From an uncultured archaeon (lineage in GTDB: Archaea; Aenigmatarchaeota; Aenigmatarchaeia; QMZP01; JACQNV01): a stretch of DNA of 58,939 bases. The stretch covers positions 1 to 58,939 of the forward strand of contig CAYYYJ010000002.1 in the NCBI GenBank assembly GCA_964476045.1. The letters are read 5' to 3'. Below, piece by piece: positions 16,308 through 46,809 of the stretch (the first letter of the stretch is position 1; each line of letters begins with the position of its first letter). Both the position numbers and the translations under genes were made by a program. Below the pieces are notes generated by a model that saw nothing but the letters and a program-made list of their open reading frames with translations, was not told the origin of the DNA and did not search any database.

Positions 16308-16371
16308 TTTCTAAAGAAGGCTGGAAATTGATTGAGAAAAAATATAAAAAATCAATTTCGTCCCTTTAAAA
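16308..16371 (+). repeat. palindromic element copy A
   Basis: CTTTCTAAAGAAGGCTGGAAATTGATT[loop]AATCAATTTCGTCCCTTTAAA. Confidence 0.8.
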
Positions 16372-16574
16372 CTAACTACTAGAGAATTCTCGCACTCCTT
16401 ATAAAGGAGTTTTGCCAACTCTGTACCAAATTGAAAAATCAAAATTCCCTGATCAAGGTTTTCTAAAAAAGAAAGGCTGGAAGAAGTAATCTTAACTATT
16501 TTTCGTTCAGCCAGAAAGTCGTCAATAGCCGAACACGCTTTAACACTTAAAAAGGCGGATATTTTATATATGTA

Positions 16575-18725
16575 ATGGTTACTATGGATATTGTCGGTTT
16601 AGAAAGCGCATCTGGATTTTCAGGTACAAAGCTCCAGGACTTTGTGCAAGCTGCATACTTTGTTTTAAAAAAATATAATAGAGAAAACCCTAAAGAGCAG
16701 GAATTGATCTGGCAAGATCTCTGCAAAAATCTTTTTGCTCTAAAAGAATTTTCTGACCTAAAATTTGAAGCACAGAAGCTGCTTTTCGATTTTGTTTATG
16801 GAAAGAGGCTGACTCAGGACGGACCGCCACCAGCATGGTTCCCCTCAAAAGAAAATTTAGAAAAATCAAATCTAGCTGTTGTAATGAAGGATCTGGATTT
16901 TAAAATGGCTGGAAACCGATCGAAGATGATTGAGATTGATCCTTCGCAATTGATCCGAGATCAATCTCGTCCCTTTAGGGAGTTCCACAAATGGTCTGTA
17001 GAAAACACCGACGACTTTTGGAGTCTAGTGACAAAAAGGCTTGGAATTGTATTTAAGAAGAGTTCTCAGAGGATATCAGACCTTTCTAACGGTGCAGAAA
17101 AGCCTGTTTGGTTCCCTGGTTCTGAGATAAATATTGTTGATAGCTGTTTTAATGCCGATAAAGGAAAAATTGCTGTCTATTTTTCTAGAGAAGGCTCAGG
17201 CAAAATTCAGAGCTGGACTTATGGAGATCTAGAAAATCTCGTCAATCAAGTTGCAAATAGTTTGAAAGAAAAAGGATACGAGAATGGCGATGTTATCGCG
17301 ATCGATATGCAAATGACTCCTGAGAGTGTTGCTGTTTACCTTGGAGTAATCAAAGCCGGTTGCGTTGCTTTATCAATAGCAGATTGCTTTGCTCCGCCTG
17401 AGATTGAGAAAAGGTTGAAGATAGGGAATGCGAAATTAATTTTTACAGTGGACTATTACATGAGGGACGGGAAGAAAATCGAAATTTATAATAAAGTTAA
17501 GGAGGCTAATCCTCCGCCTATTATACTAATTCCTTATGACGAAACTTCACAGGAAAAATTAGATGTGCTGGACATCTACTGGAAAGATTTTCTTGTAGTG
17601 AAAGATGAATTTGAATCTGTAGCTTGCAGACCGCAAGAGCCCACAAATATTTTATTTTCCTCTGGGACAACAGGCGAACCTAAAGCTATTCCATGGGACC
17701 ACACAACTCCAATAAAAGCTGCATCAGACTCGTTTTTCCATCAGGATATACACCCAGATGATATTTTAGCATGGCCAACAAATCTCGGATGGATGATGGG
17801 TCCGTGGCTTATCTACGCAACTTTAGTCAACAAGGCTTCAATGGCTTTGTACACAGGATCTTATTCTGGAAAAGAGTTTGGGGAATTCGTGCAAAATACT
17901 GGAGTTACTATGTTAGGTGTGATCCCAAGCTTGGTAAACATATGGAAAACAAAAAAATGCATGGAAGACCTTGATTGGAGCAAAATAAAAAGATTTAGTT
18001 CTACAGGAGAATGCTCGAGAAAAGAAGATATGTTATATCTCATGTCACTAGCTGGCTACAAACCGATAATAGAATATTGCGGCGGGACAGAGATCGGCGG
18101 GGTTTACATAACAGGAACAATGATACAGCCTTGCTCACCGTCCACTTTCACAACAGCTGCAATGGGTGTCGATTTTTTGATTCTAGACGAGAGCGGAAAA
18201 AGAACAAAAAACGGCGAGGTATTTATTATCCCGCCTTCTATTGGGTTATCGACCCTGATCTTGAATAGGGACAATTTCCAGACATATTATGAGGGATGCC
18301 CAAAAGAAAATGGCTATCATCTAAGACGGCATGGAGACCAGGTAGAGGAATTGGCAAACAACTATTTTGTTGTCCATGGAAGGACAGATGATACGATGAA
18401 CTTGTCTGGTGTAAAGGTGAGCTCTGCTGAGATTGAGAGGACACTGCACGGACATCCCGGAATATCAGAAACAGCTGCCATAGGGATAATGCCTGCAGAC
18501 ACCCGAATAACACAGCTTATTGTTTATGCAGTGCCGTCTAACGGAAGTGTTTTGAATAAGGAAAAAATAAAATCAGATTTCCAGCAAGCAATAAAAACAA
18601 AACTAAATCCAATTTATAAAATACATGATGTGGTTATAACAAATTCTCTCCCAAGGACAGCTTCGAACAAGGTGATGAGAAGGCTGCTGAGAGACGAGTA
18701 CCAGAAAAATATCCAGGCCAGATAA
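16575..18725 (+). CDS. AMP-forming acyl-CoA synthetase (acetyl/acetoacetyl-CoA synthetase-like) carrying a 24-codon element-derived insert
   Basis: 716 aa; FSSGTTGEPK AMP-binding motif, WSVENTDDFW N-domain, C-terminal TASNKVMRRLLR. Confidence 0.85.
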   Translation: MVTMDIVGLESASGFSGTKLQDFVQAAYFVLKKYNRENPKEQELIWQDLCKNLFALKEFSDLKFEAQKLLFDFVYGKRLTQDGPPPAWFPSKENLEKSNLAVVMKDLDFKMAGNRSKMIEIDPSQLIRDQSRPFREFHKWSVENTDDFWSLVTKRLGIVFKKSSQRISDLSNGAEKPVWFPGSEINIVDSCFNADKGKIAVYFSREGSGKIQSWTYGDLENLVNQVANSLKEKGYENGDVIAIDMQMTPESVAVYLGVIKAGCVALSIADCFAPPEIEKRLKIGNAKLIFTVDYYMRDGKKIEIYNKVKEANPPPIILIPYDETSQEKLDVLDIYWKDFLVVKDEFESVACRPQEPTNILFSSGTTGEPKAIPWDHTTPIKAASDSFFHQDIHPDDILAWPTNLGWMMGPWLIYATLVNKASMALYTGSYSGKEFGEFVQNTGVTMLGVIPSLVNIWKTKKCMEDLDWSKIKRFSSTGECSRKEDMLYLMSLAGYKPIIEYCGGTEIGGVYITGTMIQPCSPSTFTTAAMGVDFLILDESGKRTKNGEVFIIPPSIGLSTLILNRDNFQTYYEGCPKENGYHLRRHGDQVEELANNYFVVHGRTDDTMNLSGVKVSSAEIERTLHGHPGISETAAIGIMPADTRITQLIVYAVPSNGSVLNKEKIKSDFQQAIKTKLNPIYKIHDVVITNSLPRTASNKVMRRLLRDEYQKNIQAR
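16905..16976 (+). repeat. palindromic element copy inserted in frame in the acyl-CoA synthetase ORF
   Basis: ATGGCTGGAAACCGATCGAAGATGATTGAGATTGATC[17 nt]GATCAATCTCGTCCCTTT; near-identical to 41503..41570. Confidence 0.8.
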
Positions 18726-18727
18726 AG

Positions 18728-19915
18728 TTATACAGGGTTGGCGAGAAGCTGAGTATCAGCCTGTTTTGAAAGGTGATAAGCTAAAATTGGTTTTATTTGT
18801 AAAACACCCCTATCTATCATTTCATGGCTTTCAATAAGTCTGGCAGTCATATCTTTCTCCAAAATATTGGTTAATGGGATTGGAAACTCGTCTATAAGCC
18901 ACGCAAGTTCCCTGTACATGGCAGCTTCATATTCTTCCATGCCTTCCAACTCCATTTCATATATCCATAAAAACAGGTTCTCAGCCACCTTCTTGTTAAT
19001 TGCCAGAGGGGAATTTGGAATAAATCTTCTGATCCTGTAATCCAATCCGTGTTTCTGGCAAAATGCCTTTATTTTCTTCCCTAGAAAAGCCCATGAACTG
19101 TCTGTTGGCGAGAATTTTGCCTGATAAAGGCCTTTGTATTTCTCTGCCAACCCTTTCCTATATTTTTCCGCGGATTCGTAGAAAGCCGATTCCTGCCTGT
19201 CGCTCAATACCAATCCGCCGCCAAGGACAAATCTGCCACTGTTTTCTTTTGTCAGCTTTACAATAGATTCAAGGTTTTCATCACTGTCTGTAATAAAAGG
19301 GAGGACAGGCATAAGGGCTGTCCCTGTATATATTCCAGCTTCTCCCAGCGTTTTCATTGAAGCAAACCTGCTTTCTATTGAAGAAGCAAAAGGTTCGAAT
19401 ATCTCCCTGTAGCCTTTCGATCCAGAAGAATTAATACTGAAAACAACGCAAGCCCATGACTTTTCATTGATCCTCTTTATCAGATCCAGATCGCGCATGA
19501 CAAGAGGCGATTTGGCAATTATGAGGGTTGGAAAACCGCGCTTATAACACACTTCCAGCATTTTTCTTGACAGCCTGAACCTGCTTTCAATAGGCTGATA
19601 ATCCCCTGTTATAATTATGTCTTTTGGGACTTTGGAAAGTTCTTTGTCTAAAATTTCTGCAGCATTTGTTTTAATCCTGACAAATTGGGAAAACGGGTCT
19701 TTGAGGTTTTTTGTTAAATTGTTTTCAGTATTCAGCCCGTACATGTCCATGCGCAAAAAACAGTATGTGCACCCATATTGGCATCCAATGTATGGGTAAG
19801 CTGAATACTTTGACCAAAACCATCCCCCATCAATGTGCTTATTGGTTTTAAGCACGCTATCAACTTTTATTTCCTGGATAACCAGATCCGCCTGTGAATA
19901 TTTTTTGATGCCCAT
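18728..19915 (-). CDS. radical SAM protein (SplB/COG1533-like)
   Basis: GCQYGCTYCF = CxxxCxxC cluster motif near the N-terminus; 395 aa. Confidence 0.75.
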   Translation of the reverse strand: MGIKKYSQADLVIQEIKVDSVLKTNKHIDGGWFWSKYSAYPYIGCQYGCTYCFLRMDMYGLNTENNLTKNLKDPFSQFVRIKTNAAEILDKELSKVPKDIIITGDYQPIESRFRLSRKMLEVCYKRGFPTLIIAKSPLVMRDLDLIKRINEKSWACVVFSINSSGSKGYREIFEPFASSIESRFASMKTLGEAGIYTGTALMPVLPFITDSDENLESIVKLTKENSGRFVLGGGLVLSDRQESAFYESAEKYRKGLAEKYKGLYQAKFSPTDSSWAFLGKKIKAFCQKHGLDYRIRRFIPNSPLAINKKVAENLFLWIYEMELEGMEEYEAAMYRELAWLIDEFPIPLTNILEKDMTARLIESHEMIDRGVLQIKPILAYHLSKQADTQLLANPV

Positions 19916-19937
19916 GATGCTATTAATGCAAGTTTAA

Positions 19938-20808: not shown

Positions 20809-20871
20809 CTAAAATAAAACACTGTAAGAAATATAAAGCGCAAAGTATCTGCTATAAGCAATGCATAACTC

Positions 20872-20917: not shown

Positions 20918-20927
20918 TGCTCAATGT

Positions 20928-21485: not shown

Positions 21486-21808
21486 CTATATGGTAGGTTA
21501 GAGAAGCTTTATATGTTTTTTGTCCTGGCCATTTCAGCTTCTCAGAGAGAATTAGACCCATCTTTGGTAATCTACGAATCTGATAAAATAAGGTCAGAAC
21601 CATTTTCTGGCATCTCTAAAATTACAGGAGGCGCATATAAAAAATAACCGTCAATACAAAAAATATAAGATTTGTGTTCAGGGACAGGAAGGAGCCAACA
21701 AACCTGTCCCCAGACACAAGAAGAGGAATTTACTAGCCTACGAATATAAGTTATTAAGGAATTCTCACGCATTATATAAAGCTTTTCCCTAGTTTAGACC
21801 CAAATTCA

Positions 21809-21902
21809 GCCCTTTCTTTTCCCGATGGACTGAAACCGATTTCCGTTCGATCTATTCGAAATCGGTTTCGACCCTTTAAAGTGTTGAGATCCCAAAGAAA
21901 AA
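21809..21902 (+). repeat. palindromic element copy G with outer arms
   Basis: GCCCTTTCTTTTCCCGATGGACTGAAACCGATTTC[loop]GAAATCGGTTTCGACCCTTTAAAG...CCCAAAGAAAAAA. Confidence 0.75.
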
Positions 21903-21994
21903 ACGTTGAGATTAAGCCTTATAACCCAAGAAAGAAAAGGATTTACACCTATACCCAAAGAAAAACAATAGGCCGAATAAAACCAATAACCAAC

Positions 21995-22643: not shown

Positions 22644-22762
22644 CGCCATCACCCGGACTCGAACCGGGATATCCCGTCTTCTGAGAAATTGGAATGCTCA
22701 ATTTCAGTATGTGAAGGAAACAGGCTTTCCAGGCCTGCGCAGTACCATTGTGCCATGATGGC
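22644..22762 (-). tRNA. tRNA-Ser(GGA), class II, with ~37-nt intron in the variable arm
   Basis: Sense GCCATCA-TG-GCA..TGC-G-CAGGC-CTGGAAA-GCCTG-[52-nt variable region]-CCCGG-TTCGAGT-CCGGG-TGATGGC-G; the variable region is about 35 nt too long. Confidence 0.7.
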
Positions 22763-24763: not shown

Positions 24764-24824
24764 TAAATAGTAGTTGTCAAAGTAACTTCAGTTTTTGCTT
24801 AAGCGTTGAATGGATGAAAGCGGG

Positions 24825-25241
24825 TTACAAAAGCTTTAGAAATTCATCTGCTTTCACTATTTTTGTTAGGTGGAATTCTTTGAGGTTCAACAAGTGTGGA
24901 TCTCCTGTAACTATGTAGTCTGCTTTAGCTGTTACAGCACACTCTATTATTTTATTATCGTCTGGATCGTCTCTAACAGCCTGAATCGTGTTTGCCGGTT
25001 TGACAACTTTTGCATATTCCAAAATTAAAGCTATCTGACTTTCAATAAAATCGTGGTCTTCAAGAAAATCCCTTTTCAAGACCCTTTCCAACTCTTCCAA
25101 TATTTGTGGTGATGTGAAAACCTGTATTTTTCCATCTATAGCAAGCTCCACTATCTGGTGAGGTTTGCCCAGCCAGAAGACAGAGGAAACATAAATGTTG
25201 GTGTCCAAAACAACCCTAAGCTTTTCGTTTTCTTCCTTCAC
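24825..25241 (-). CDS. PIN-domain toxin
   Basis: VVLDTNIYVSSVFW...; paralogue of 31290..31691. Confidence 0.8.
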   Translation of the reverse strand: MKEENEKLRVVLDTNIYVSSVFWLGKPHQIVELAIDGKIQVFTSPQILEELERVLKRDFLEDHDFIESQIALILEYAKVVKPANTIQAVRDDPDDNKIIECAVTAKADYIVTGDPHLLNLKEFHLTKIVKADEFLKLL

Positions 25242-25482
25242 GGATTATTCTCACAACGTCTTCTTCTGATTTTATTCCTAATTTCTTTGCGTGCTTTATT
25301 CCAAAATTTGTCAGCCTTTCAAATTCTTTTGTCGGGTCTGGAATATTTATTTTTTTTAATAGGATAAAGTCCTCCATTCTGCTTACAACCAGCTGTGAAC
25401 CTTCCTCTAATTCTAATTCCTGCCTAATGTGAGAAGGTATTACAACCTGCCCTTTTGTTGAGATTGTAGTTATTTCTGCCAT
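25216..25482 (-). CDS. AbrB/SpoVT-family antitoxin
   Basis: ISTKGQVVIPSHIRQELELEEGSQL; overlaps the PIN gene. Confidence 0.8.
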   Translation of the reverse strand: MAEITTISTKGQVVIPSHIRQELELEEGSQLVVSRMEDFILLKKINIPDPTKEFERLTNFGIKHAKKLGIKSEEDVVRIIREGRKRKA

Positions 25483-25564
25483 ATAAGAATGTATTACTTT
25501 CTTACCTTATAAAGGTTTTTATTATAATTTAAGAAGCCACAATTAAGACTCAAGACCGATGACT

Positions 25565-25643
25565 GAGTACCGAAGACTGCAGGAACTGCTTACTCCTGTT
25601 CTATTGGTTAGGTCTTGGGTTCTGAGTTCTGGGTCCTGAATCC
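25565..25643 (+). repeat. repeat X (about 85% identical to 33062..33145)
   Basis: CCGAAGACTGCAGGAACTGCTTACTCCTGTTCTATTGGTTAGGTCTTGGGTTCTGAGTTCTGGGTCCTGAA. Confidence 0.75.
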
Positions 25644-31275: not shown

Positions 31276-31289
31276 ACAAGAAAAGCGAG

Positions 31290-31691: not shown

Positions 31692-31692
31692 T

Positions 31693-32255: not shown

Positions 32256-32849
32256 ATGCCTGAAAAGATTAAAGCTGAAGGATTGAGAATAGAAAAACTG
32301 GAACCGAGACATAAAGAGCTGTTGAATTCTTTTCAAACTTCAAACAAGGAGCTGAAAGATTTTCTTGTTGAAGATGCATTCAAAAATCAAGAATTGGCAA
32401 TTTCAACAACTTATGTCTGGTTTTACGCAAAAACAAATGAGCTGGTTGCTTATATAACCTTGCTGACAGATTCTCTCAGAATAAGGGAAACAGAATTAGA
32501 AAAGGCATTTGTAGATAAGGGAATTTTGTATAAAAGTTTGCCTGCACTCAAAATAGGAAGACTTTGTGTGGACAACCTATTTATAGGAAGGGGCATAGGA
32601 ACCCAGACAACTTATTTTGTGATGGATGTGCTTTTGACAATCACAGATTATGCTGGCTGTAGGTTTGTAGTTCTCGATGCAAAACCAGAAGCAGTGGAGT
32701 TTTACAAGAAACTCGGATTTCAAATACTGAAACAAGCAGATAAAGAAACTGTCCCAATGTATTATGATATGAGGGCCGGTATTGACCTTTACAGAAAAGG
32801 TGAGCTTAAGCTATCTGAATATTTTTTGAAAACTTTTCGAGCTCTCTAG
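32256..32849 (+). CDS. GNAT-family N-acetyltransferase
   Basis: RLCVDNLFIGRGIGTQ acetyl-CoA binding motif; FYKKLGF. Confidence 0.8.
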   Translation: MPEKIKAEGLRIEKLEPRHKELLNSFQTSNKELKDFLVEDAFKNQELAISTTYVWFYAKTNELVAYITLLTDSLRIRETELEKAFVDKGILYKSLPALKIGRLCVDNLFIGRGIGTQTTYFVMDVLLTITDYAGCRFVVLDAKPEAVEFYKKLGFQILKQADKETVPMYYDMRAGIDLYRKGELKLSEYFLKTFRAL

Positions 32850-32964
32850 CTAATTCTCTATCCTTTTCTGTCGGAGCTGAATTGTTCTTTTTAATCATGT
32901 TCTCCAAAAATCTTCTCGCATCTTCACCAGTAATTTCTGGTGTTGGTTCAATTGGCTTTGCCAT
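32806..32964 (-). CDS. small convergent ORF (52 aa), unverified
   Basis: MAKPIEPTPEITGEDARRFLENMIKKNNSAPTEKDRELARELEKFSKNIQIA; overlaps the GNAT 3' end. Confidence 0.25.
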   Translation of the reverse strand: MAKPIEPTPEITGEDARRFLENMIKKNNSAPTEKDRELARELEKFSKNIQIA

Positions 32965-33061
32965 ATGATATTTAATTTATTTAACAGTTTATAAGCTTTC
33001 AGGAGCGTGTTTTTCAATGCTTTCCCCTTCTTATACATTTCCATCAAAAAACTCTGAAAGC

Positions 33062-33145
33062 CGTAGACCGAAGACTTTGTAGGGAACTGCTTATTCCTGT
33101 TCTATTGGTTAGGTCATGTGTCCTGAGTTCTGGGTCTTGAAGACC
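33062..33145 (+). repeat. repeat Y (matches 25565..25643), lies in the trailer of tRNA-Lys
   Basis: CCGAAGACTTTGTAGGGAACTGCTTATTCCTGTTCTATTGGTTAGGTCATGTGTCCTGAGTTCTGGGTCTTGAA. Confidence 0.75.
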
Positions 33146-33193: not shown

Positions 33194-33510
33194 CGGGCCC
33201 GGTGGGATTTTCAGTCTTGAGTCCTGAGTTTTGAGTATTGTTATTGACCCAACTGTATTTGTATTGTAGTTTTCTTGGATACGGTAGCCTTCTTCTAAAA
33301 GAAGGCTAGCATTTGAACCCACGACCTTCCAGGTTTTCGCTTTTCAGCAAATCACTATCCGGTATCTTCTATCAGCCGAGTTGCACATTTTCTATCATCG
33401 CAGATTTCTGTCTGCTAAATATGCTTTTAACGACATCGTTTTGAAATAAGCAATGCCTATATCAAACAATATTAAAAGCCGGGTGCTCTACCAGGCTGAG
33501 CTACGAGCCC
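33194..33510 (-). tRNA. tRNA-Lys(UUU) with two introns: anticodon-loop (33335..33472, ~138 nt) and T-loop (33207..33310, ~104 nt)
   Basis: Exons GGGCTCG-TA-GCTC..GAGC-A-CCCGG-CTTTTA / A-CCTGG-AAGGTC-GTGGG-TTCAAAT / CCCAC-CGGGCCC-G. Acceptor and T stems pair only when all three pieces are joined; one C-U mismatch in the anticodon stem. Confidence 0.65.
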
Positions 33511-33570: not shown

Positions 33571-33744
33571 GCCCAGGTTGTGTAGCGGCCTAGCATAGAG
33601 CCCTGTCATGTAAGCTTTTGTCACAAAAGCTTAAGCAAAAAAGGAGCCTAAAATTCTTTCGCTTCGGCTCAGAATTTTTACGGCTTCCACGGAAAAGGCT
33701 TATACGGATCGGCTCTGACCCGGGTTCAAATCCCGGCCTGGGCG
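33571..33744 (+). tRNA. tRNA-Asp(GUC) with ~101-nt intron (33609..33709)
   Basis: GCCCAGG...GAGCC-CTGTCA[intron]C-GGCTC-TGAC-CCGGG-TTCAAAT-CCCGG-CCTGGGC-G. Confidence 0.85.
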
Positions 33745-33778
33745 CCTGTTTTTTAAAATTAACCCTCTTTGAGTAAAT

Positions 33779-37952: not shown

Positions 37953-38513
37953 TCATCCTAAAGTAAACGTTTTAATTGGAGTATACACCGGCCCGATTCC
38001 TGTCAAACTGCTTTGGAAAAGTTTAATCTCTTCCACCCGCATCTCTCCAATATAGATCTTCTCCAACTCTTTTAATTTATCCAATAGTTTCTTTCTGTCA
38101 GTAACAATCCCAACCCTCGCAAAAGTCAGATGCGGGCGGGGGTCATAATCTTCCTTTCTGAAATCCTCCAATTTCTCATTCAACGCATTTTCGAGATGTA
38201 TTATCTGGTCCTTTCCCTGATTAACTTCTAAAAAGACCACTGTTATATAGGACGGATTATTGAAAAAAGATAATCCAGAAACAGAAATATTGAAAGGATC
38301 TGTTAACTTAGAAGCAGATTTTATACGTTCGGCTAGTTCAGTAACACTGTTATCTGAAACCTCTCCAAGAAATTTCAGTGTAAAATGAAAATTTTTCCTC
38401 TCAACTATCTTCAAGTCAGCAAATCCTCCAGCTTCGCCCAAAAACCTTTTCTGAAATTGCAAAACTTTTTCTTTCAGTTGTTCATCCAAATCTATCGCAA
38501 CAAACAATCTCAT
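37953..38513 (-). CDS. 2'-5' RNA ligase / 2H phosphoesterase (LigT/ThpR)
   Basis: Two HxT motifs: HFTLKFLG and HLTFARV. Confidence 0.8.
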   Translation of the reverse strand: MRLFVAIDLDEQLKEKVLQFQKRFLGEAGGFADLKIVERKNFHFTLKFLGEVSDNSVTELAERIKSASKLTDPFNISVSGLSFFNNPSYITVVFLEVNQGKDQIIHLENALNEKLEDFRKEDYDPRPHLTFARVGIVTDRKKLLDKLKELEKIYIGEMRVEEIKLFQSSLTGIGPVYTPIKTFTLG

Positions 38514-38642
38514 CTTTTTATTTAGAGATCAGTAATTAAAAAGGAGAAAAAAAGTATTCACACCATCTTCACGCCACCAAGATATATAAGCCAGGTTACC
38601 ATAAACTGTGTATCTTAAAAAATCAAATAAAATTTCAAGAAT

Positions 38643-38692
38643 GGATCAAACTGATTTCAGACCAATTGGTTAGGAAATCAATTTCAGCCATC
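38643..38692 (+). repeat. palindromic element copy F
   Basis: GGATCAAACTGATTTCAGACCAATTGGTTAGGAAATCAATTTCAGCCATC; about 90% identical to copy E. Confidence 0.8.
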
Positions 38693-38693
38693 T

Positions 38694-39770
38694 ATGGAGC
38701 CTATGAACGGATACCTCGACCTGAACTCAGCGTATACAAAAAACTTTGGCTGGAGATCCAATCCTTTTTCTTTCAAAATTGTCCCAGAGCTCTTTGTTGG
38801 CTACCAAAAAGAAGTCAGCACAATTTTTAACGGAGTAAACGACGGCTCTAGATTCTCTCTAATTTTAGGCCAATCAGGGACAGGAAAAACAACTTTTATG
38901 AAACATGTGCAGAGAAATCTCAGCGAGAAAAATAAAATCCTCTATCTCCCGAAAGCTCCAACAGACCCAAAAGACCTAGTTGAAATACTAACTAACAACC
39001 TAGGATTGAGTCCAGAAAATTCAGGCAAAGAAATAAACCTCTACAACATCGGAGACTTCCTAAACAAAGAAGTCAGGGATTTCAAAATAATCCTTTTCAT
39101 AGACGAGTGCCAAGAAGCGCCGAAGGAAACTTTCGAATGGCTCAGATCTCTGTCAGACCAGATAGACAATATCTCTATTGTATTATCCGGCCTCCCAGAA
39201 TTCGAGTCCATACTCAAAACAGAAATCCACAGTCTACTCAACCGCGTAAATATCAGGGTTGAAATGGGAAATCTCAGCAGATTAGAAACACTTGATCTAA
39301 TCAAGAAAAGAATAGAGTTTGTAGGCGGTATAGATACACAACCTTTCACACACGACGCGATAGAGATAATCTACGACAAAACAGCTGGCTACCCCAGAGA
39401 GATCCTAAGAGTCTGCGAAGAAGTCGCTCAAAAAGCTGCAATCAAAAATATTTCTATAGTAGACGCAGAGTTTGTCCAAGAGCAAGAAACCCTGAAATCA
39501 GTAGAAAAGCCTTCGATGCATGATCTCTCTGGAAGACAGAAAGCAATAATAGAATCCTTGATTTCCCACAAAACCCTTACACCGTCACAAATGGTAGCAA
39601 AGATCGACTGTAATGAATACAAAACAAAAGACAACGCAGTCCGCTCAGTCAACAACATCCTGAAAAGAATGACTGAAGAAGGCAAATTAATCCGAAAGAA
39701 AAGGGATAAAGCCTTTGTTTATGAGTTAGCGCCAAGAATGCAATCTGCTTTTAGTTTAGGAAAAGCTTAA
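38694..39770 (+). CDS. AAA+ ATPase with C-terminal winged-helix (ExeA- or Orc1/Cdc6-like; not resolved)
   Basis: GQSGTGKTT Walker A, LFIDECQE Walker B, C-terminal wHTH-like segment. Confidence 0.6.
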   Translation: MEPMNGYLDLNSAYTKNFGWRSNPFSFKIVPELFVGYQKEVSTIFNGVNDGSRFSLILGQSGTGKTTFMKHVQRNLSEKNKILYLPKAPTDPKDLVEILTNNLGLSPENSGKEINLYNIGDFLNKEVRDFKIILFIDECQEAPKETFEWLRSLSDQIDNISIVLSGLPEFESILKTEIHSLLNRVNIRVEMGNLSRLETLDLIKKRIEFVGGIDTQPFTHDAIEIIYDKTAGYPREILRVCEEVAQKAAIKNISIVDAEFVQEQETLKSVEKPSMHDLSGRQKAIIESLISHKTLTPSQMVAKIDCNEYKTKDNAVRSVNNILKRMTEEGKLIRKKRDKAFVYELAPRMQSAFSLGKA

Positions 39771-39868
39771 AGAATCCAAAACCCCCCTTAACGTATTTTT
39801 TAGAAAAACCCGAAAAGAAAAAGTTCTTTATTCTTAACCTCGATTCAAACAACTCTACTGTTTTCTAA

Positions 39869-40129
39869 CTATTTAACTTCTTTCTCTGCAACTATAACAA
39901 AATCCCCGACAGACCTGACTGCAGAAAACGGAACTAAAACCCTTCCCTTGTCATCTTGCTGTAAGTTCAGTTCTGTCGCATGCCTTGTTGGCTGGGTCAA
40001 AACAAGATTTATGAGTTCTCCTGATTCTGTGATGTAGTCTAAATCTCCAACAACACCAAATTTCTTTCCGCTTTCATCAGAAATAAGGACTTTTCCCAAC
40101 AATTCTCTGCTCTTCAACCTTTCCACCAT
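39869..40129 (-). CDS. PRC-barrel domain protein
   Basis: 86 aa; LLGKVLISDESGKKFGVVGDL...SVGDFVIV. Confidence 0.7.
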   Translation of the reverse strand: MVERLKSRELLGKVLISDESGKKFGVVGDLDYITESGELINLVLTQPTRHATELNLQQDDKGRVLVPFSAVRSVGDFVIVAEKEVK

Positions 40130-40134
40130 ATTCT

Positions 40135-40234
40135 ACCCTTTCTTTTCAAAGAAGGATGGAAGTTGATTTCCTATCCAATTTATCTGAAATCAACTTCGTC
40201 CCTTTAGAAAGGCTACAGTACCCAAAGAAAAGGG
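40135..40234 (+). repeat. palindromic element copy B with outer arms, 6 nt from the PRC-barrel start codon
   Basis: ACCCTTTCTTTTCAAAGAAGGATGGAAGTTGATTT[loop]AAATCAACTTCGTCCCTTTAGAAAGGCTACAGTACCCAAAGAAAAGGG. Confidence 0.8.
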
Positions 40235-40377
40235 TTTAGTAACCTTTCTGTTAACTATATTCTAAATTAACCGATTAAATATATAAAGGGTACTAAACTT
40301 TAAAAACTTAATGTGGTTCGTCCCCTTTGCAATAAATAAAGGTCGTTTTCAAGAATAATTTACCCAAAGAAACAAAA

Positions 40378-41127
40378 TTAGTCAGAAGTAGGCGTAACCT
40401 TTACCCCAATTTCTTCCAGTTTTTCCTTAAACTTCTCTAAAGCCCTGTTAATATCCTCTATGCTATGGGCTCCTGTACAAATTATTTTTCCAGAACTGAA
40501 CAAAAGGAATGCAACTCTAGGTTCTGTTATCCTGAAAACCAACCCAGGGAACTGCTCTGGCTCGTACTCAGCATTCTCTAGCATGAAAGCAATCTCTTCT
40601 AAATTTAGCTTTGCCAGGATCTTAGTTGAAGCAACAATATTCTCAACCTCTATTGGGAATTTTTTTGGCACATTGAACCCTACGCTGCGTATTGTTTCAG
40701 CCACTTTTTGCATCGCAATCTTGGCATTCTCTATACTCTTTGCGCCTGTACAAACAACCTTGCCCGAGCTGAAAATTAAAGCTGCTGCCCTAGGGTTTGT
40801 AGGCCTGTAAACAAGACCAGGGAACTGCTCAGGTTCATATTCAGTATTCTCTACCTCTTTAACAAGCTTTTCCAATTGAATATCAACTCCAAGTGTAGCA
40901 AAAGCAACTACGTTCTCAACTTTTATTTTAAAATCACTAGGTAAGTGTATAATCGGGCTACTCTCACTGCTGGGACTCTTCGTATTCTCCCCCTGATGAA
41001 CCGGTTCTTTAATTTTATGCTCTTTACCCTTTGTTGCTTTTAAATCTAGGGCCTTCTTTCCACTAATCTTTTTCATTTTGGGTTTAGTTTTTTTAGAAAT
41101 CGATTTCTTATCTTTAGCCATATCCAA
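40378..41127 (-). CDS. tbp: TATA-box binding protein with ~65-aa Lys-rich N-terminal extension
   Basis: Two TBP repeats (ENVVAFATL...EQFPGLVYR; ENIVASTKI...EQFPGLVFR). Confidence 0.9.
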   Translation of the reverse strand: MDMAKDKKSISKKTKPKMKKISGKKALDLKATKGKEHKIKEPVHQGENTKSPSSESSPIIHLPSDFKIKVENVVAFATLGVDIQLEKLVKEVENTEYEPEQFPGLVYRPTNPRAAALIFSSGKVVCTGAKSIENAKIAMQKVAETIRSVGFNVPKKFPIEVENIVASTKILAKLNLEEIAFMLENAEYEPEQFPGLVFRITEPRVAFLLFSSGKIICTGAHSIEDINRALEKFKEKLEEIGVKVTPTSD

Positions 41128-41224
41128 TCAGACATCGATAGTGGAATGTCGTCCACTCGCTGAAATATAAAACAAGAGCGTAAGCTTTATATTAGTATAC
41201 TATATATCGTGCTCCCTATATATA

Positions 41225-41268
41225 CTAAGCTTTTGTCATCAAAGCCTTAAGCAAAAAAGGATCCTAAA
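41225..41268 (+). repeat. copy of the 5' part of the tRNA-Asp intron
   Basis: TAAGCTTTTGTCATCAAAGCCTTAAGCAAAAAAGGATCCTAAAT versus 33611..33653, about 40/44 identical. Confidence 0.75.
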
Positions 41269-41279
41269 TGTTATGTTTG

Positions 41280-41474
41280 CTATCTCTCAAACTGTCCAAT
41301 TTCCTTCACCATATCCACATTGGATATCAAGATGGATCTGCAACAAAACTTCTCAATTCCTAAAGAATCTAGAACAACCTTCGAATCTTCCCCAGCGGCT
41401 AACCTGTCTTTATACTTCTCCCATACATGGGATATAGGTTTTCCACAGGAAAAACATCTCACAGGTATAATCAT
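41280..41474 (-). CDS. rpoN: DNA-directed RNA polymerase subunit N (Rpo10)
   Basis: MIIPVRCFSCGKPI...CCR. Confidence 0.9.
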   Translation of the reverse strand: MIIPVRCFSCGKPISHVWEKYKDRLAAGEDSKVVLDSLGIEKFCCRSILISNVDMVKEIGQFER

Positions 41475-41480
41475 AAGCTA

Positions 41481-41618
41481 TCCTTTTCTTTCCAAAAGAA
41501 GAGTGGAAACCGATCGAAGATGGTTGAGATTGATCTTGGATCAGCTGCGAAGGATCAATCTCGTCCCTTTGTGATCGGTTTCGTCCCTTTAAGTATACCG
41601 TACCCAAAAAGAAAGGGT
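41481..41618 (+). repeat. palindromic element copy C: one element nested in the loop of another
   Basis: Outer GTGGAAACCGATC...GATCGGTTTCGTCCCTTTA encloses inner GAAGATGGTTGAGATTGATC[17]GATCAATCTCGTCCCTTT; outer arms TCCTTTTCTTTCC / CCCAAAAAGAAAGGG. Confidence 0.8.
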
Positions 41619-41717
41619 TTAGTTAATCAATAAAATAGGTATAATCTCTTTTGTACAACAATCTATAACATATCTAATGTAAGGTTTAAATAGGTTTCTG
41701 CAGGTCAATAGTAAGTT

Positions 41718-42536
41718 ATGATTGATGTTCACTGTCACCTGGAACAAAAGGAATTCGAGAACGGCCTAGACAAAGTAATACAATCTTGTAAATCTGTAGG
41801 TATAAAAGCCCTGGTAACATCTTGCTGCAACCCAAAGGATCTGGAGAAAACCCTCGAAATCCAGGAAGAGTATAAGAACTTTGTTTTCGCCTGTGCAGGC
41901 CTGCATCCAGAGTACATAAAAGAAATCTCTCAGAAAGAAGCTGACTCTTATCTAGACCTTCTAAAGAAGAACAAAAACAAACTAATAGCAATCGGGGAAA
42001 TAGGCCTCGACTATTTCTGGATAAAAGAGCCTTCCTGGCAAGCCAAACAGAGAGAACAGTTCGCAGAGTTAATCAGGTTTGCTAAAGAGCTAAAAAAGCC
42101 TTTAGTTGTTCATTCCAGGAACTCACATCCTGACACAGTAAACATCCTCGAAAAAGAAGATGCGAAACAAGTCCTTCTCCACATGTTCGGCGGAAAAGAC
42201 CTGATCAAAAGAATTGTCCAAAACAATTGGTTAATTTCCATAAACTACCTCATAACCAGAAGCAAAGACTACAAAAAAATAGCGAGGGACACACCTCTAG
42301 AGAATATTTGTCTCGAAACAGATGCTCCTTGGAACGGAATACAAAAACCTTCCGACCAACTTTCTAAATCAGATGTAATTTTCCGAGAAAACAAAGAAAC
42401 AAAAATCACAACTTTGAGGAATGACCCAACAACAATCCTTCCCACCGCGCAAAAAATAGCTGAGATCAAAAAGGTCTCTTTCGAACAAGTCTGGAAAAAC
42501 TGCGGGGAAAACGCGAAGAAGTTTTTCAACATCTAG
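41718..42536 (+). CDS. tatD: TatD-family metal-dependent hydrolase
   Basis: MIDVHCHL, GEIGLDY, VVHSR, ETDAPW. Confidence 0.85.
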   Translation: MIDVHCHLEQKEFENGLDKVIQSCKSVGIKALVTSCCNPKDLEKTLEIQEEYKNFVFACAGLHPEYIKEISQKEADSYLDLLKKNKNKLIAIGEIGLDYFWIKEPSWQAKQREQFAELIRFAKELKKPLVVHSRNSHPDTVNILEKEDAKQVLLHMFGGKDLIKRIVQNNWLISINYLITRSKDYKKIARDTPLENICLETDAPWNGIQKPSDQLSKSDVIFRENKETKITTLRNDPTTILPTAQKIAEIKKVSFEQVWKNCGENAKKFFNI

Positions 42537-42542
42537 TTTTTA

Positions 42543-42953
42543 TCATTCCTGTATCGGCTTCACATAATACTTCCCACCGCACGCATCGCATTTCAAGAAG
42601 TTCATTCTCCCTTCCTTAATTATATGCGTGTCTGGCCTTCCGCACTCTTTGCAAATAACATATTGGTTTACGTAAAGCTCAATTTTCTTGTCCACTGAAA
42701 AATTATTGAATTTCCCAAAAACAGTGACCCTTTTGTTTTTAATCTCCCCTGAAGTGGCAAGCTCTTTAAGCAAAAACTTCAGCAAATGAGATTCGTCTCG
42801 CCCAAGAGTAGCAGCCAGCTCAGAAAAGTTCACAATTATTGTTTTTAGCCCATCAGCCTGCGTCTGCGACTTCGGCATCACAAACCTCTCGCCTGTGTCA
42901 GTCTTCTTCGGAACCTTCTCCATTAGCTTGTCCAGCATCTCTTCATAATTCAT
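42543..42953 (-). CDS. translation initiation factor aIF2 beta subunit
   Basis: C-terminal CKECGRPDT...CDACG zinc ribbon and typical N-domain. Confidence 0.9.
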   Translation of the reverse strand: MNYEEMLDKLMEKVPKKTDTGERFVMPKSQTQADGLKTIIVNFSELAATLGRDESHLLKFLLKELATSGEIKNKRVTVFGKFNNFSVDKKIELYVNQYVICKECGRPDTHIIKEGRMNFLKCDACGGKYYVKPIQE

Positions 42954-43054
42954 ATCTCTCTATTAAGATACTCAGGTTTAAAAAGTCTCCTAATTTGGTA
43001 TATTGGCACAGGTTGTCAATAGGCAAGTATATATAATTTCCCATTAAAAACAGT

Positions 43055-43327
43055 ATGATGCCAAACCAAAGAGTAGAATATGTGCCTGGAATGAGAGGGC
43101 CAGATTTTGAAAGACATTCAAGACGCTTAGGAATGGACAGTCCAGGAACAATATCTGATGTACTTCGTGTAAGAATAGCTGGGGATCTTGTTTATTTCGA
43201 TGGTTATGCGAGTCATGATTTAACGTGTGCCAGTGCATCAAAAAGAGTTCTACAAGCCGAAATGATGATACCTCCAGAAGAAATCCAAATATACAAAAAA
43301 CTTATAACAGTGGAAGAAGTCAGATAA
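43055..43327 (+). CDS. hypothetical protein
   Basis: 90 aa ORF. Confidence 0.35.
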   Translation: MMPNQRVEYVPGMRGPDFERHSRRLGMDSPGTISDVLRVRIAGDLVYFDGYASHDLTCASASKRVLQAEMMIPPEEIQIYKKLITVEEVR

Positions 43328-43518
43328 ATATTATTTCTCCAATCACTGTTTTTAGAAAATAAATCCCAAAGCTATCTACCCAAAAAGCATATAACACTGT
43401 AATCTTTATAAATCCCAGATCGATATAAATATTAGCAAATCTTCACGCAAAACCTAAATCCCACAAAATCAGTAAACAGCACTTCTTTTGCTGATGCAAA
43501 AGACCTGCACTAGAAAAC

Positions 43519-43633
43519 GACAAACAGAAATCGTTTGGCGACGATTCCTTTTTGAGACGAAAATTGTTTTCAAAACCAACTTTGGCGAGTTGTTTTGAAT
43601 CGTATTTGGAAAATAACTTGAAACAGACAATTG
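43519..43633 (+). repeat. three ~48-nt-spaced hairpins with identical TTGGCG loops
   Basis: AATCGT-TTGGCG-ACGATT (43519..43536); CAACT-TTGGCG-AGTTG (43567..43582); CAGACAA-TTGGCG-TTGTCTG (43614..43633). Confidence 0.75.
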
Positions 43634-43746
43634 GCGTTGTCTGATCTACTTACTGTAATGTATAAACATTAGCGGTAGGTTTAAAAAGTGTTTGTATACT
43701 GGAGTATATACTTCTGTTACAATCATCCATCTTAAAATCTACGAAA

Positions 43747-43797
43747 GACCGAAACTGATTTCAGACCAATTGGTTAACAAATCAGTTTCCGTCCATC
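43747..43797 (+). repeat. palindromic element copy E, 15 nt upstream of ftsZ
   Basis: GACCGAAACTGATTTCAGACCAATTGGTTAACAAATCAGTTTCCGTCCATC followed by TATGGAGG-N6-ATG. Confidence 0.8.
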
Positions 43798-43811
43798 TAT
43801 GGAGGTAAAAT

Positions 43812-44939
43812 ATGAATTCAATAATCGAGCAAGCTTTCAGTAAAAGCTTAGAACAGGCGCCTGATCCTGAACAGCAAAGGAAAACAATAATGGAAGAGTT
43901 CGGTCTCGATCTCAAGGATGCCAAAATAGTAGTAGTCGGCTGCGGTGGCGCAGGAAGCAACACAATAAACAGGCTTACAAACATGGGAGTACAGGGAGCC
44001 AAGACAGTGGCACTAAACACAGACGTGAAACATCTTTCAAGAACAAATGCCCACCACAAACTCTTGATAGGAAAAGAGCTGACAAGAGGACTTGGCGCTG
44101 GAGGTTATCCAGAAGTAGGCAAAAACGCAGCCCTTGAAAGCGAAAAAGACATCAAGAAAGTTTTAACTGACGCTGACATGGTTTACATTGTAGCAGGCCT
44201 CGGCGGTGGAACAGGGACTGGTTCAGCTCCCGTTGTCGCAAAAATAGCAAAAGAAATGGGCGCAATCACAATAGGCGCTGTAACAATGCCTTTCAAAATA
44301 GAGGGCGCAAGAATGGCTAAGGCAGAAGACGGCTTGTTCCAGTTACGGCAAAGATGCGACACAGCAATAGTAATAGAAAACGACAGGCTTCTCAAAGTCG
44401 CAGGAGACCTACCAATCGACCAGGCTTTCGCAGTCTCTGACAACATAATCGCAACAATGATCAAAGGCGTGACAGAAACAATCTCCATGCCCTCTTTAGT
44501 CAACCTAGATTACGCAGACGTGAAAACAATCATGCATTCTGGCGGCGTCGCAACAGTCGGCTTCGGGGAATCTGATACAGACCACAGGGCAGAAGAAGCT
44601 GTTGTAAAAGCTTTAACAAACCCTCTGCTAGATGTCGATTACACAGGTGGATCTGGCGCTTTACTCCACATAACAGGCGGGAATGACCTGAGATTAGAAG
44701 AAGTCAACCTGATTGGAGAGTATGTCTCCAAACAACTAGATCCAGATGCCCAAGTTATCTGGGGTTCGAGAATCGATCCAACCTTCAGCGGAAAGATCCG
44801 TGTAATAACAATAATAACAGGAGTAAGCTCGCCTTACATTGTAGGTCCTCTTGCGAAAAGGCAGGCCCTCCAAAAGCAACAAACTGAACTCAGAAGCCTC
44901 TCAGAAGAGTTTGGGATCAAGATGATGGTTGAAGGCTAA
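43812..44939 (+). CDS. ftsZ: cell division GTPase FtsZ
   Basis: GCGGAGSN, GLGGGTGTGSAPVVA tubulin signature. Confidence 0.95.
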   Translation: MNSIIEQAFSKSLEQAPDPEQQRKTIMEEFGLDLKDAKIVVVGCGGAGSNTINRLTNMGVQGAKTVALNTDVKHLSRTNAHHKLLIGKELTRGLGAGGYPEVGKNAALESEKDIKKVLTDADMVYIVAGLGGGTGTGSAPVVAKIAKEMGAITIGAVTMPFKIEGARMAKAEDGLFQLRQRCDTAIVIENDRLLKVAGDLPIDQAFAVSDNIIATMIKGVTETISMPSLVNLDYADVKTIMHSGGVATVGFGESDTDHRAEEAVVKALTNPLLDVDYTGGSGALLHITGGNDLRLEEVNLIGEYVSKQLDPDAQVIWGSRIDPTFSGKIRVITIITGVSSPYIVGPLAKRQALQKQQTELRSLSEEFGIKMMVEG

Positions 44940-45032
44940 TTTATTTTTTCCAGGGGTTTTCCCCCCAATTCTATTTTCTAATACGAAAATCTCTTAAAAT
45001 AGCTTTTAAGAGCTCACACACAATATTATTGA

Positions 45033-46124
45033 ATGAAGCGTTATTTTTTTGTTCTGGCCGCGGTTTTCTTTATTCTGATTATCCCTAACTTTGCGAAAGC
45101 TGAGGAAAAATCTATACTTGAAATAGGCCATGCATTAATGAGCCAAGACAATAAAACAGTCCGATTCATTGCAGCCTACGCGGAAAACTCCACAAGTGTT
45201 GTTAGTCTGATACCCAAAGCAGACTGTAAAATCTCTTTCACTGACCAGCCATCCCCGAAGCCAATGTCATATAATCCAGGAACCAGTTACGATTTCACAC
45301 GGGTATTCACAGAATCAGCTAAAATAGATTATACAGTAACCTGCTCAAGCCAGAATTATACACAGCAAACAAAATCCAAGCGCTTGGAGCTGGTCACTGA
45401 CTTTCTTGAAGTCGTTCTGATTAGTCCCCAAAACACTGTGACAACCCGAAACGTCAATTTCATCTGTGAAGTCCGCGGAAACAAGCCAAATGCAATAAAC
45501 CTTTACTCAGACACTTCAGGCGAATGGAAGCTGAGAGCCTCATCGCAAATCAAAACAACAAGATCCCCTTTCCGTGTAAACTTCACAGAAGATTATGTCT
45601 CAGATGGATCTTACAAATGGAATTGCGAAGCAGAAACAGGCAAGGGAACTAAATTCGCCCCTTCTGACAAAAAGTTTACACTAAAATTCTCACCCAAAGT
45701 CCCTGATTGTTTTGAAGCAGTTGATTGCACTTCCTGGGAACCACAGACATGTTCTGGAGACAAACAAACAAGATCATGCAACAAAACAGCTGAATGCAGT
45801 TATACACAATCCAGAAACTGCACACTCCCAGCAACAAGCCCTGACAACGGGATTGTCCTGCAGTCCCCTATACCAACGTTACCAGATACTCCTGGTTCGG
45901 CTAAAAGCAAAGACACAGGATTAGGCATACTCCCTATCCTCCTTTTAGTTTTAGTAATCGCCGGAGTCGGAGCCTTCCTCTTGATAAAGTTCAAAAGAAA
46001 AAAGCAGGCAAGTAAAGACAAAGAAAAAGAAGGCGACATCTTCGACGAGCTGGCGACAGAAGAGCTGCCAGAAGAACCTGAAGACCAAGAAAATCAAGAA
46101 CCAGAGGATGAGGACAAGAAATAA
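45033..46124 (+). CDS. secreted, C-terminally membrane-anchored protein with acidic tail
   Basis: Signal-like MKRYFFVLAAVFFILIIPNFAKA; C-terminal TM helix LGILPILLLVLVIAGVGAFLLI; EEPEDQENQEPEDEDKK tail. Confidence 0.6.
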   Translation: MKRYFFVLAAVFFILIIPNFAKAEEKSILEIGHALMSQDNKTVRFIAAYAENSTSVVSLIPKADCKISFTDQPSPKPMSYNPGTSYDFTRVFTESAKIDYTVTCSSQNYTQQTKSKRLELVTDFLEVVLISPQNTVTTRNVNFICEVRGNKPNAINLYSDTSGEWKLRASSQIKTTRSPFRVNFTEDYVSDGSYKWNCEAETGKGTKFAPSDKKFTLKFSPKVPDCFEAVDCTSWEPQTCSGDKQTRSCNKTAECSYTQSRNCTLPATSPDNGIVLQSPIPTLPDTPGSAKSKDTGLGILPILLLVLVIAGVGAFLLIKFKRKKQASKDKEKEGDIFDELATEELPEEPEDQENQEPEDEDKK

Positions 46125-46190
46125 TAGAGTAACAGGTTATTTTAATTTGAAACGCCTAAACATTTAAACCTAAATAAATTAGTACAACTT

Positions 46191-46617
46191 ATGATATCTA
46201 TACAAAATGCAGCAAAAGAGGATTTTATCCAGATAGAAGAAATATTAAAAGAAAATGAGATGTTGGTTCCGTATATAGACGGAAAAGAAGCCATGGAAAG
46301 GATCAAAAAAATCCGGAAGATACTTTTTGGTAGCAAAAGATGCTGATGCTGTTATTGGCTTTATCAGGGCTGTTTATGATGGCTCTAGAGCATTAATACA
46401 TCAAATGGCTGTTAGGAAATCCAACCAAAGAAAAGGTATCGGGAAAAAACTTATTTTAGAAATCTGTAAAAGGCTTAAAGAGGATGGAGCGCCAACAGTG
46501 TCTGTCACTGTAACAGAGAAATCAGCTTCCTATTATCAAAGCCTATCTTTTAAAAAGCTGCCTATCACGCTTATGCTAGCTGACGACATAAATAAAGTTA
46601 TAGGATTAACAGGTTGA
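46191..46617 (+). pseudogene. GNAT acetyltransferase with frameshift in an A7 run
   Basis: Frame 1 MISIQNAAKEDFIQIEEILK...ERIKK; frame 2 continues SGRYFLVAKDADAVIGFIRA...RKGIGKKL; shift at 46305..46311. Confidence 0.65.
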
Positions 46618-46707
46618 CACAACAGACTTTCCCTGGACACGTATCCTTACCTATTTAAATATACCTATTATATATCTAGAAATAAGCTGTTGAGTCCGGC
46701 ACTATTT

Positions 46708-46809
46708 GCCCTTTTGGGTACAGTAGCCGATTCGGCTGGAAACCGATTTTCTAAGCAATTGGTCTAAAATCGGTTTCGTCCCTCTAAAGCTCCCGGAAAA
46801 GGCTACTAT
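46708..46809 (+). repeat. palindromic element copy D; right arm overlaps the S15 start codon
   Basis: GCCCTTTTGGGTACAGTAGCCGATTCGGCTGGAAACCGATTTT[loop]AAAATCGGTTTCGTCCCTCTAAAGCTCCCGGAAAAGGCTACTATG. Confidence 0.8.

Follow-up and report, generated by a model that had tools for sequence, protein, structure and literature searches.

A family of hairpin-forming palindromic repeats, probably mobile, in spacers, coding sequence and tRNA introns of an uncultured archaeon related to Aenigmatarchaeota

Small palindromic repeats scattered over a genome have been described under several names, among them the miniature inverted-repeat transposable elements (MITEs), the repetitive extragenic palindromic (REP) sequences and the Rickettsia palindromic elements (RPEs). 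A separate literature concerns the introns of archaeal tRNA genes: different tRNAs in the Thermoproteales have similar introns (Fujishima et al. 2010, as summarised in PMC4090602), transposition of such introns is held to be real, its mechanism not being known (PMC4090602), and DPANN archaea have many disrupted, probably undetected tRNA genes (PMC5829648). Here we describe a family of imperfect palindromes that touches on both subjects, found in a stretch of 58,939 nt from an uncultured archaeon (contig CAYYYJ010000002.1 of assembly GCA_964476045.1). This whole stretch is called the window below.

We consider it probable that the family consists of small non-coding, non-autonomous, hairpin-forming palindromes of mobile DNA, similar in kind to MITEs, REPs and RPEs. 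The literature that we consulted on Aenigmarchaeota tRNA introns and on archaeal MITE, palindromic and tRNA-intron repeats holds no description of such a family, and it is, as far as we are aware, the first palindromic repeat family of this sort in this DPANN clade. Taken alone it would be one more selfish palindromic repeat family, and its wider value comes from its connection with tRNA introns. The same modules occupy introns and polymorphic non-tRNA sites. Sites with and without a copy, nested intermediates and copies within introns, all of a single family, can be studied in this clade, which makes the question of intron transposition testable in it.

Anatomy of the repeat and covariation of its arms

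An original prediction made from the letters of the window had grouped eight copies into one family, and each is present where that prediction put it. A covariance model of the core (R1), built from the window copies and scored with filters off, recovers all eight in a scan of the window (53.7-77.2 bits, E 4e-11 to 5e-17). With a loop-deleted copy at 25 bits, the number detected by the model in the 59 kb comes to nine, eight of which lie at 54-77 bits (Table 1). For further comparison we aligned 30 copies from 15 loci and the window, using the best strand of each. The unit that appears to be mobile is a core of ~58 bp, which reads AAGG-CTG-GAARYYGATTTC, a CAATTG-centred loop, and GAAATCRRYTTC-GTC-CCTTTAG. 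Its terminal inverted repeats have arms that are 98% complementary over 12 bp and contain an invariant skeleton with dyad symmetry, GA....GAT / ATC....TC; CTG faces GTC in a symmetric 3x3 internal loop, and the outer AAGG/CCTT pairing is 74% paired. The motif CAATTG, which had been pointed out in several loops, is the loop centre in 18 of the 30 copies, so that the dyad symmetry partly carries on into the loop. Both flanks had been taken to be conserved, which is true of the right one: GTCCCTT is nearly invariant (the same in 24/30 aligned copies), and the right-flank 13-mer TTTCGTCCCTTTA, with up to two mismatches allowed, was observed 8 times against 2.5 expected, a count that 0/100 shuffles reached. 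The left flank is variable, (A/T)(A/T)GGNT(G/T), and the 9-mer motif proposed for it is by itself barely above chance (52 observed, 37 expected).

The outer arms that had been noticed around composites B, C and G are real, and they belong to a separate repeat module, which we call M1 (CCCTTTCTTTT..AAAGAAGG-CTACNGTACCCAAAGAAAGGGTTTAG). A core often sits within M1 or within the loop of another core. Composite C is nested, its outer arms GGAAACCGATC and GATCGGTTTCGTCCC enclosing the inner core 41516-41575, and the copy that lies inside an open reading frame (ORF) is of the same nested type, minus the outer right arm; further nested copies occur at L037, L105 and L137 (L numbers denote loci with which the window was compared). 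The alignment shows homology through the loops, with copies E and F inverted relative to the remaining copies. This inversion, the nesting of C, the loop-deleted copy at 171-215(-) and the link to tRNA introns are additions to the earlier description.

The stem differs between copies, and it had been suggested that the arms covary beyond what simple duplication would give. The larger alignment bears this out. The 12-bp main helix is 98.2% paired with two-sided changes at 9 of its 12 pairs, the covariation score was reached by 0/500 shuffles, and sliding the partner by 1-3 columns lowers pairing to 31-59%. The proposed GG/CC closure of the 3x3 loop stands in part: one G-C pair closing the loop is present in 27/30 copies and never varies, the other is present in 17/30, and neither covaries.

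Covariation of this strength could be expected of a cis-regulatory RNA hairpin in 5'-leaders, one whose structure is selected because it hides or exposes a ribosome-binding site or start codon, or because it is an RNA-processing site. Placement also fits in part, since copy E, which follows the conserved ftsZ promoter block and comes just before the GGAGGT ribosome-binding site, is probably part of the ftsZ leader, and most window copies fall 0-55 nt from a start codon. However, the genome is compact with short spacers and nearly any intergenic insertion would come to lie near a start codon, so that the proximity stressed in the original prediction, though real, is largely what one would expect; the right arm of D, said to overlap the S15 AUG, in fact ends 17 nt upstream of it (46790 as against 46808). 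Moreover, copies occur in both orientations relative to transcription, transcribed contexts included, and some lie in coding sequence or within tRNA introns, which are discarded. The stem mismatches (6 G:T, 4 A:C) show neither a strand bias nor a G:U excess on either strand, and strand-specific selection on RNA was rejected on that count. Rfam at its gathering score matched only tRNAs in the whole window, and at E<=1 over 38000-47500 it matched nothing at the copies, in agreement with the expectation that this is not a known RNA family. Readings of the 3x3 loop as a K-turn or as a bulge-helix-bulge (BHB) motif were rejected in a hand check, as the registers do not fit. Given mismatches without strand bias, both orientations in transcribed contexts and a dyad that continues into the loop, the arm covariation does not point to an RNA function. 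A leader hairpin is thus very unlikely to be what unites the family, and the comparison with relatives, to which we now turn, weighs heavily in that judgement.

Filled and empty sites in related genomes

Loci for comparison were reached through homologues of the ACS-like protein and of FtsZ. The syntenic relative represented by L134 and L135 (FtsZ 91%, ACS-like protein 73-75% identical) lacks copies A, G, B, E, D and the in-ORF copy at the orthologous sites and keeps F; L136 (FtsZ 84% identical) and L137 (83%, from the metagenome-assembled genome (MAG) CAZVWU01) were also compared. Gains and losses of copies separate genomes with 73-91% identity between their genes. At the site of A, L134 and L132 hold just ~20 unrelated or half-element bases, and neither has a copy at the site of G. 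Composite B is a clean insertion of 111 nt (M1 plus core) relative to L135. Copy E is absent in L135 and L136, with a nested copy at the same place in L137, and D is absent upstream of S15 in L135, L136 and L137. At the C site the M1 frame is common to the window and L135, which has a simple core in the opposite orientation. The comparison of orthologous loci proposed in the original prediction therefore yields six absent copies, one retained copy and one site with a different, inverted core. Candidate target-site duplications flank some of the insertions, namely TA..TA at B, CTA..CTA at E in the window and TAG..TAG at its counterpart in L137; the junctions of A and of the in-ORF copy are not clean.

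L135 in turn has its own copies, at 7109-7168 (43.7 bits) and 19223-19282, which have no full counterpart in the window, and each of its 4 copies in 21 kb has a GAAATAG stem variant found in none of the window copies. Just upstream of the TBP gene, where L135 holds a full copy, the window has a sequence at 41129-41156 that we take, from the alignments, to be the collapsed remnant of a core. Copies that come, go or are replaced, together with variants private to one genome, are typical of mobile repeats and not of conserved regulators.

For the leader hairpin the relevant cases are ftsZ, S15 and the PRC-barrel gene, whose upstream copies are missing in relatives that have the same genes and conserved promoter blocks; an element that occludes the ribosome-binding site or start codon, as had been proposed, is not supported. 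Copy F speaks for a leader function. Alone among the copies it has been retained at its site in a relative (L134 12659-12718, L135 4671-4730), upstream of the AAA_22 gene, and it differs between the genomes by paired, compensatory changes in both arms.

We note that the sequence upstream of ftsZ (~43640-43720) contains a block that is almost identical in four genomes (the window, L135 at ~9850-9930, L136 and L137). Within it, GGTTTAAAAAGTGTTTGTATACTGGAG comes after two small hairpins (ACAGACAATTGGCGTTGTCTG and CTCTAATGTATAAACATTAGAG). Its conservation far exceeds that of the neighbouring palindromic repeat, and the block is probably the ftsZ promoter with a conserved leader or regulatory element.

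The same absences bear on the idea, also raised in the original prediction, that the palindrome is a protein-binding site at the DNA level. Such a site could be an operator, a nucleoid-protein site or an origin box recognised by a dimeric protein, and could define a regulon that includes ftsZ and the PRC-barrel gene. Dyad symmetry, the invariant skeleton and the CAATTG centre are what such a site would have, and copies adjoin ftsZ, the PRC-barrel gene and TBP. Yet close relatives lack the site in front of these genes, copies are present in coding sequence and tRNA introns, a protein site does not call for covariation where the stem is variable, and the copies, scattered along 30 kb, form no cluster around an AT-rich unwinding element. 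A cell-division regulon (ftsZ, PRC-barrel) was rejected because of the absences. Origin boxes linked to Orc1/Cdc6, to which a loose likeness to the mini-ORB half-site had pointed, were rejected as well, since the adjacent AAA_22 ATPase is not an Orc1/Cdc6 protein (17.9 bits against an NCBIfam cut-off of 181.3). We regard a binding site as scarcely credible.

The family was found solely in a narrow clade of uncultured archaea that have Aenigmatarchaeota (DPANN) as relatives, and its presence in few MAGs and absence from more distant relatives indicate that it is restricted to this clade. An exact two-arm pattern matched 9 stretches in GTDB species genomes, of which R1 confirms 6, in three archaeal MAGs (CAZVWU01, DATDTO01 and JACQNV01, Aenigmatarchaeota). 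With a looser pattern in metagenomes, R1 confirms copies in 12 of the 120 loci among the matches listed, so that ~90% of these are chance matches and the scan gives no estimate of copy number. Three more distant Aenigmatarchaeota-related genomes (FtsZ 68-71% identical) have no copy in 60 kb. A viral or plasmid origin was considered and dropped, the exact two-arm pattern having 0 matches in viral contigs and blastn of composite B no match in phage records. The window itself has a G+C content of 39% and encodes, among others, TBP, RpoN, FtsZ, S15, eIF2-beta and the PRC-barrel protein; an identical FtsZ is found on Logan metagenome contigs, and the nearest named relatives of this FtsZ are from Candidatus Aenigmatarchaeota (DPANN), at 68-72% identity.

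Table 1. Repeat cores and M1 modules in the window
Feature	Position	Strand	Score	Context
Loop-deleted core (GGTTGAAGTTGATC-TGAA-GATCAGCTTTGTCCCTAG)	171..215	-	25.2 bits, E 5.5e-4	
Core copy A	16316..16372	+	64.1 bits	Divergent spacer, 162-aa ORF / AMP-binding (ACS-like) gene
In-ORF copy: outer left arm and whole inner core	16905..16981	+	64.2 bits	
Composite G: M1-like left arm, core 21824-21882, M1-like right units	21795..21970	+	Core 68.9 bits	Spacer between 66-aa ORF and ComB-like gene; M1 matches at 21913-21945
"Empty" M1, no core	33261..33308	-		T-loop intron of two-intron tRNA ~33195-33510(-)
Core copy F	38634..38692	-	60.7 bits	10 nt upstream of conserved AAA_22 ATPase ATG (38703)
Composite B: M1 left arm, core 40151-40210, M1 right arm	40130..40242	+	Core 77.2 bits	Directly abuts PRC-barrel gene start codon (40127-40129, minus strand); M1 match 40209-40240
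Putative collapsed core remnant (GACATCGAT..ATGTCGTCC)	41129..41156	+	No covariance-model match; read by eye from alignments	Just upstream of TBP gene
Composite C: M1 arms, outer core arms 41503-41515 and 41576-41591, inner core 41516-41575	41478..41625	+	Inner core 53.7 bits	Between rpoN and TatD-like gene
Core copy E	43738..43797	-	65.9 bits	14 nt from ftsZ ATG at 43812
Copy D: core 46731-46790, inverted M1-right fragment on left (46698-46732)	46698..46790	+	67.2 bits	Upstream of S15; M1 match 46702-46730(-)

Further decayed copies are suggested by solo right arms (..GGTTTCGTCCCTTTAAGC and GTGGTTCGTCCCCTTTGC) and by weak covariance-model matches, at L136 7754(-) just downstream of ftsZ, at L137 11131-11189 and at 40313-40330 in the window. 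Another selfish element occurs in the same genome neighbourhood: in L132 (1-682) a gene similar to that for the replication factor C large subunit carries an intein, with Intein_splicing and LAGLIDADG_3 matches.

Copies in coding sequence and in tRNA introns

The copy inside the ORF adds 66 nt in frame, which are read through as 22 amino acids, MAGNRSKMIEIDPSQLIRDQSR, and this segment is missing from 9/9 aligned homologues, two of them at 75-76% identity. Reading frames are open through the copy in 2/6 cases, so that its in-frame survival is better seen as the outcome of a filter than as a design feature. A homologue, P0005, has a 21-aa insertion at another position, ~100 residues further on. 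Back-translation of this segment gives arms of the form ...GAAACCGATCC...GATCGGTTTCGAC..., which suggests that it is an independent copy of the element, and there would then be two independent insertions within one enzyme family. By lengthening enzymes with extra peptide and leaders with long hairpins, insertions of the repeat can mislead annotation.

The flanks of the cores in L071, L111, L008 and L010 are pieces of tRNA exons. We placed BHB junctions by hand, spliced the sequences and gave them to ARAGORN, which called the spliced forms canonical: tRNA-Thr(TGT) in L008, tRNA-Arg(TCG) in L010 and tRNA-Lys(CTT) in L071. Reconstruction by hand was needed because Rfam gave no match on the multi-intron tRNA loci. 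Each reconstructed gene has two or three introns, the sites being the D-loop, 37/38 and the T-loop. These introns hold M1 with or without a core, the cores being in either orientation, and the intron-bearing junctions have BHB motifs that use exon bases. In the window, the loop-deleted copy sits at the 3' end of a 112-115-nt intron of tRNA-Ser(UGA), 127-322(-). A hidden Markov model of M1 made solely from intron copies of other genomes (nhmmer) finds a whole "empty" M1 at 33261-33308 (E 1.6e-5, 0 matches in 20 shuffled windows), with weak half-matches exactly at the arms of B, C and G. Modules of the family are thus present in BHB introns of at least five tRNA genes, namely tRNA-Thr of L008, tRNA-Arg of L010, tRNA-Lys of L071, tRNA-Ser of the window and a second window tRNA.

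This second tRNA (~33195-33510(-)) is unannotated, with an anticodon-loop intron of 137 nt and a T-loop intron of ~105 nt; ARAGORN accepts it after removal of the T-loop intron and calls it Leu-taa, and by eye we read it as Lys-UUU. An unannotated tRNA-Asp(GTC) at 33571-33746(+), with a 101-nt anticodon-loop intron, was overlooked by Rfam and by ARAGORN at default settings. The repeat AAGCTTTTGTCACAAAAGCTTAAGCAAAAAAGG of its intron recurs at 41227-41259 (the TBP/rpoN spacer), 42759-42791 and 56644-56676, and is a third repeat module common to an intron and spacers. Long introns are present in 4/5 window tRNA genes. We also note that tRNA-Ser(GGA), 22644-22762(-), contains an inserted segment with CTGAAATTG..CAATTTCTCAG, a short hairpin similar to the arms of core copy A; L134 and L132 have diverged versions of this insert. 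For annotation these genes are a warning, since standard tRNA finders are blind to multi-intron tRNA genes and two were overlooked in the window.

The presence of M1 and cores in D-, anticodon- and T-loop BHB introns of several genomes raises the possibility that the modules are mobile introns at the RNA level, which would enter RNAs, for example by reverse splicing or ligation, and return to the genome through reverse transcription and recombination; copies outside tRNA genes would then be off-target products. Transposition of introns is, as said above, regarded as real, its mechanism not being known (PMC4090602). T-loop introns of different tRNAs have common ends, M1 at the 5' end and ..CTGAAAAT at the 3' end, and composite G, which resembles the T-loop intron of tRNA-Thr in L008, seems to carry, like that intron, a few T-loop-like bases (AAAT|TCAGCCC). 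The core, however, lacks the BHB geometry of two 3-nt bulges on opposite strands with a 4-bp helix between them: its 3x3 loop is opposed rather than staggered by such a helix, no 4-bp register shift pairs, and the core is for this reason not a substrate of the splicing endonuclease. In addition, copies inside introns are found in either orientation, the DNA that holds B, E and D is not that of tRNA genes and shows no recognisable BHB ends, and no reverse transcriptase was seen. We judge an RNA-level route improbable and less likely than mobility at the DNA level.

Mobile DNA might itself be a source of introns, and we speculate, as a tentative and rather doubtful proposal, that M1 and the core are DNA-level vehicles by which the tRNA genes of this clade gain non-canonical introns. 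A module would transpose into a tRNA gene, and a short duplication of a self-complementary target, for example TTCGAA of the T-loop or AGCT of the D-arm, would give rise to a BHB motif, with its central helix of 4 bp and its two bulges. The host splicing endonuclease would then remove the insert, so that the insertion would be tolerated, and the copies in spacers and coding sequence would be unspliced by-products. There are hints in this direction: the 3' end of the T-loop introns (..GAAAAT or CGAAT) looks as if it had been copied from the palindromic target, TTCGAA/TTCAAA, and makes up the central helix, and it is conceivable that insertion with duplication could create a splice motif. Should the proposal hold, it would provide the mechanism that archaeal intron transposition has so far lacked.

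The preferred explanation and known systems

Among the roles that the original prediction had listed, only that of a MITE-like mobile palindrome is supported, by presence and absence between relatives, in-frame insertion, nesting, both orientations and residence in tRNA introns. As a mobile DNA palindrome, the element would insert as DNA into TA/TAG sites, a short duplication arising in the process, and would be mobilised in trans by an enzyme encoded outside the window. That enzyme may recognise the folded form, hairpin or cruciform, together with the conserved right flank, and recognition of a folded form would explain both the covariation of the arms and the lack of strand preference. To the host the copies would mostly be passengers: those in tRNA genes would ride in introns removed by the splicing endonuclease, in coding sequence only in-frame copies free of stops would survive, and copies upstream of genes would make the leader longer or push the promoter out of place. 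One may speculate that a few copies, D or B for instance, even supply a TATA-like sequence.

Several points weigh against a mobile element. The main gap is that a search of the window with Pfam (~40 ORFs) gave nothing convincing as a transposase or mobilising gene. No long element bounded by the same ends was seen in any fetched locus, and the ORFs that paired copies enclose in L071 and L130 are ordinary genes. The duplications are of 2-3 bp and come from three or four filled/empty pairs only, and could therefore be chance. The retention of copy F with paired arm changes could reflect selection for a local function, and in 6/7 intergenic window copies the same end is turned toward the nearest start codon, a mild orientation bias not required of a purely selfish element.

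The sole lead to a mobilising gene is a 501-aa SWIM-finger protein (29443-30948). Separately, we observed that this SWIM-zinc-finger ORF is included in ~6.5 kb that are missing from syntenic L134 and are bracketed by a direct duplication of ~0.8 kb (73-92% identical blocks) at 24817-25640 and 31282-33141; the bracketed region may be an integrated element or a segmental duplication.

The family has much in common with MITEs, such as the archaeal ones of Sulfolobus and the TA-targeting Correia elements of Neisseria. It is likewise short (the criterion being <600 bp), non-coding and multi-copy, has terminal inverted repeats, nests, is present or absent between close relatives, has an apparent TA/TAG flanking duplication, and inserts beside promoters and start codons. 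As to differences from MITEs, no parent insertion sequence with matching ends was found in the window or the fetched loci. The arms differ between copies yet stay complementary, which is unusual for the terminal inverted repeats of double-stranded DNA, and the element is one whole hairpin rather than two ends around unrelated DNA.

The family can also be compared with REPs and REPINs, with their RAYT HUH/Y1 transposases, the hairpin ends of IS200/IS605 and the PATE derivatives. Shared with this group are imperfect palindromes with covarying stems, a conserved asymmetric flank by the hairpin, higher-order palindromes made of inverted units, and genome-specific variants such as the GAAATAG stem of L135. 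In contrast to REPs, the family is without the typical GTAG head (GT[AG]G), and its unit is ~58 nt with the conserved flank on the 3' side (GTCCCTT), as compared to 20-40 nt for the REPs, which are bacterial. No RAYT, TnpA or TnpB gene was seen; for RAYT (Y1/HUH) this applies to ~250 kb of fetched loci that were not systematically annotated, and a single-stranded DNA substrate would be only a conjecture for this family.

With RPEs the family shares in-frame insertion into protein-coding genes, tolerated as extra peptide. This is shared behaviour and not homology, as RPEs are unrelated in sequence, have alphaproteobacterial hosts, are 100-150 bp long and are not known from tRNA introns. Finally, as in the transposed tRNA introns of Thermoproteales and the disrupted tRNAs of DPANN archaea (PMC4090602, PMC5829648), BHB motifs at the junctions splice to canonical tRNAs. 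The modules described here differ from those introns in that the core carries no BHB motif, and in that the same modules are also polymorphic insertions in spacers and coding sequence.

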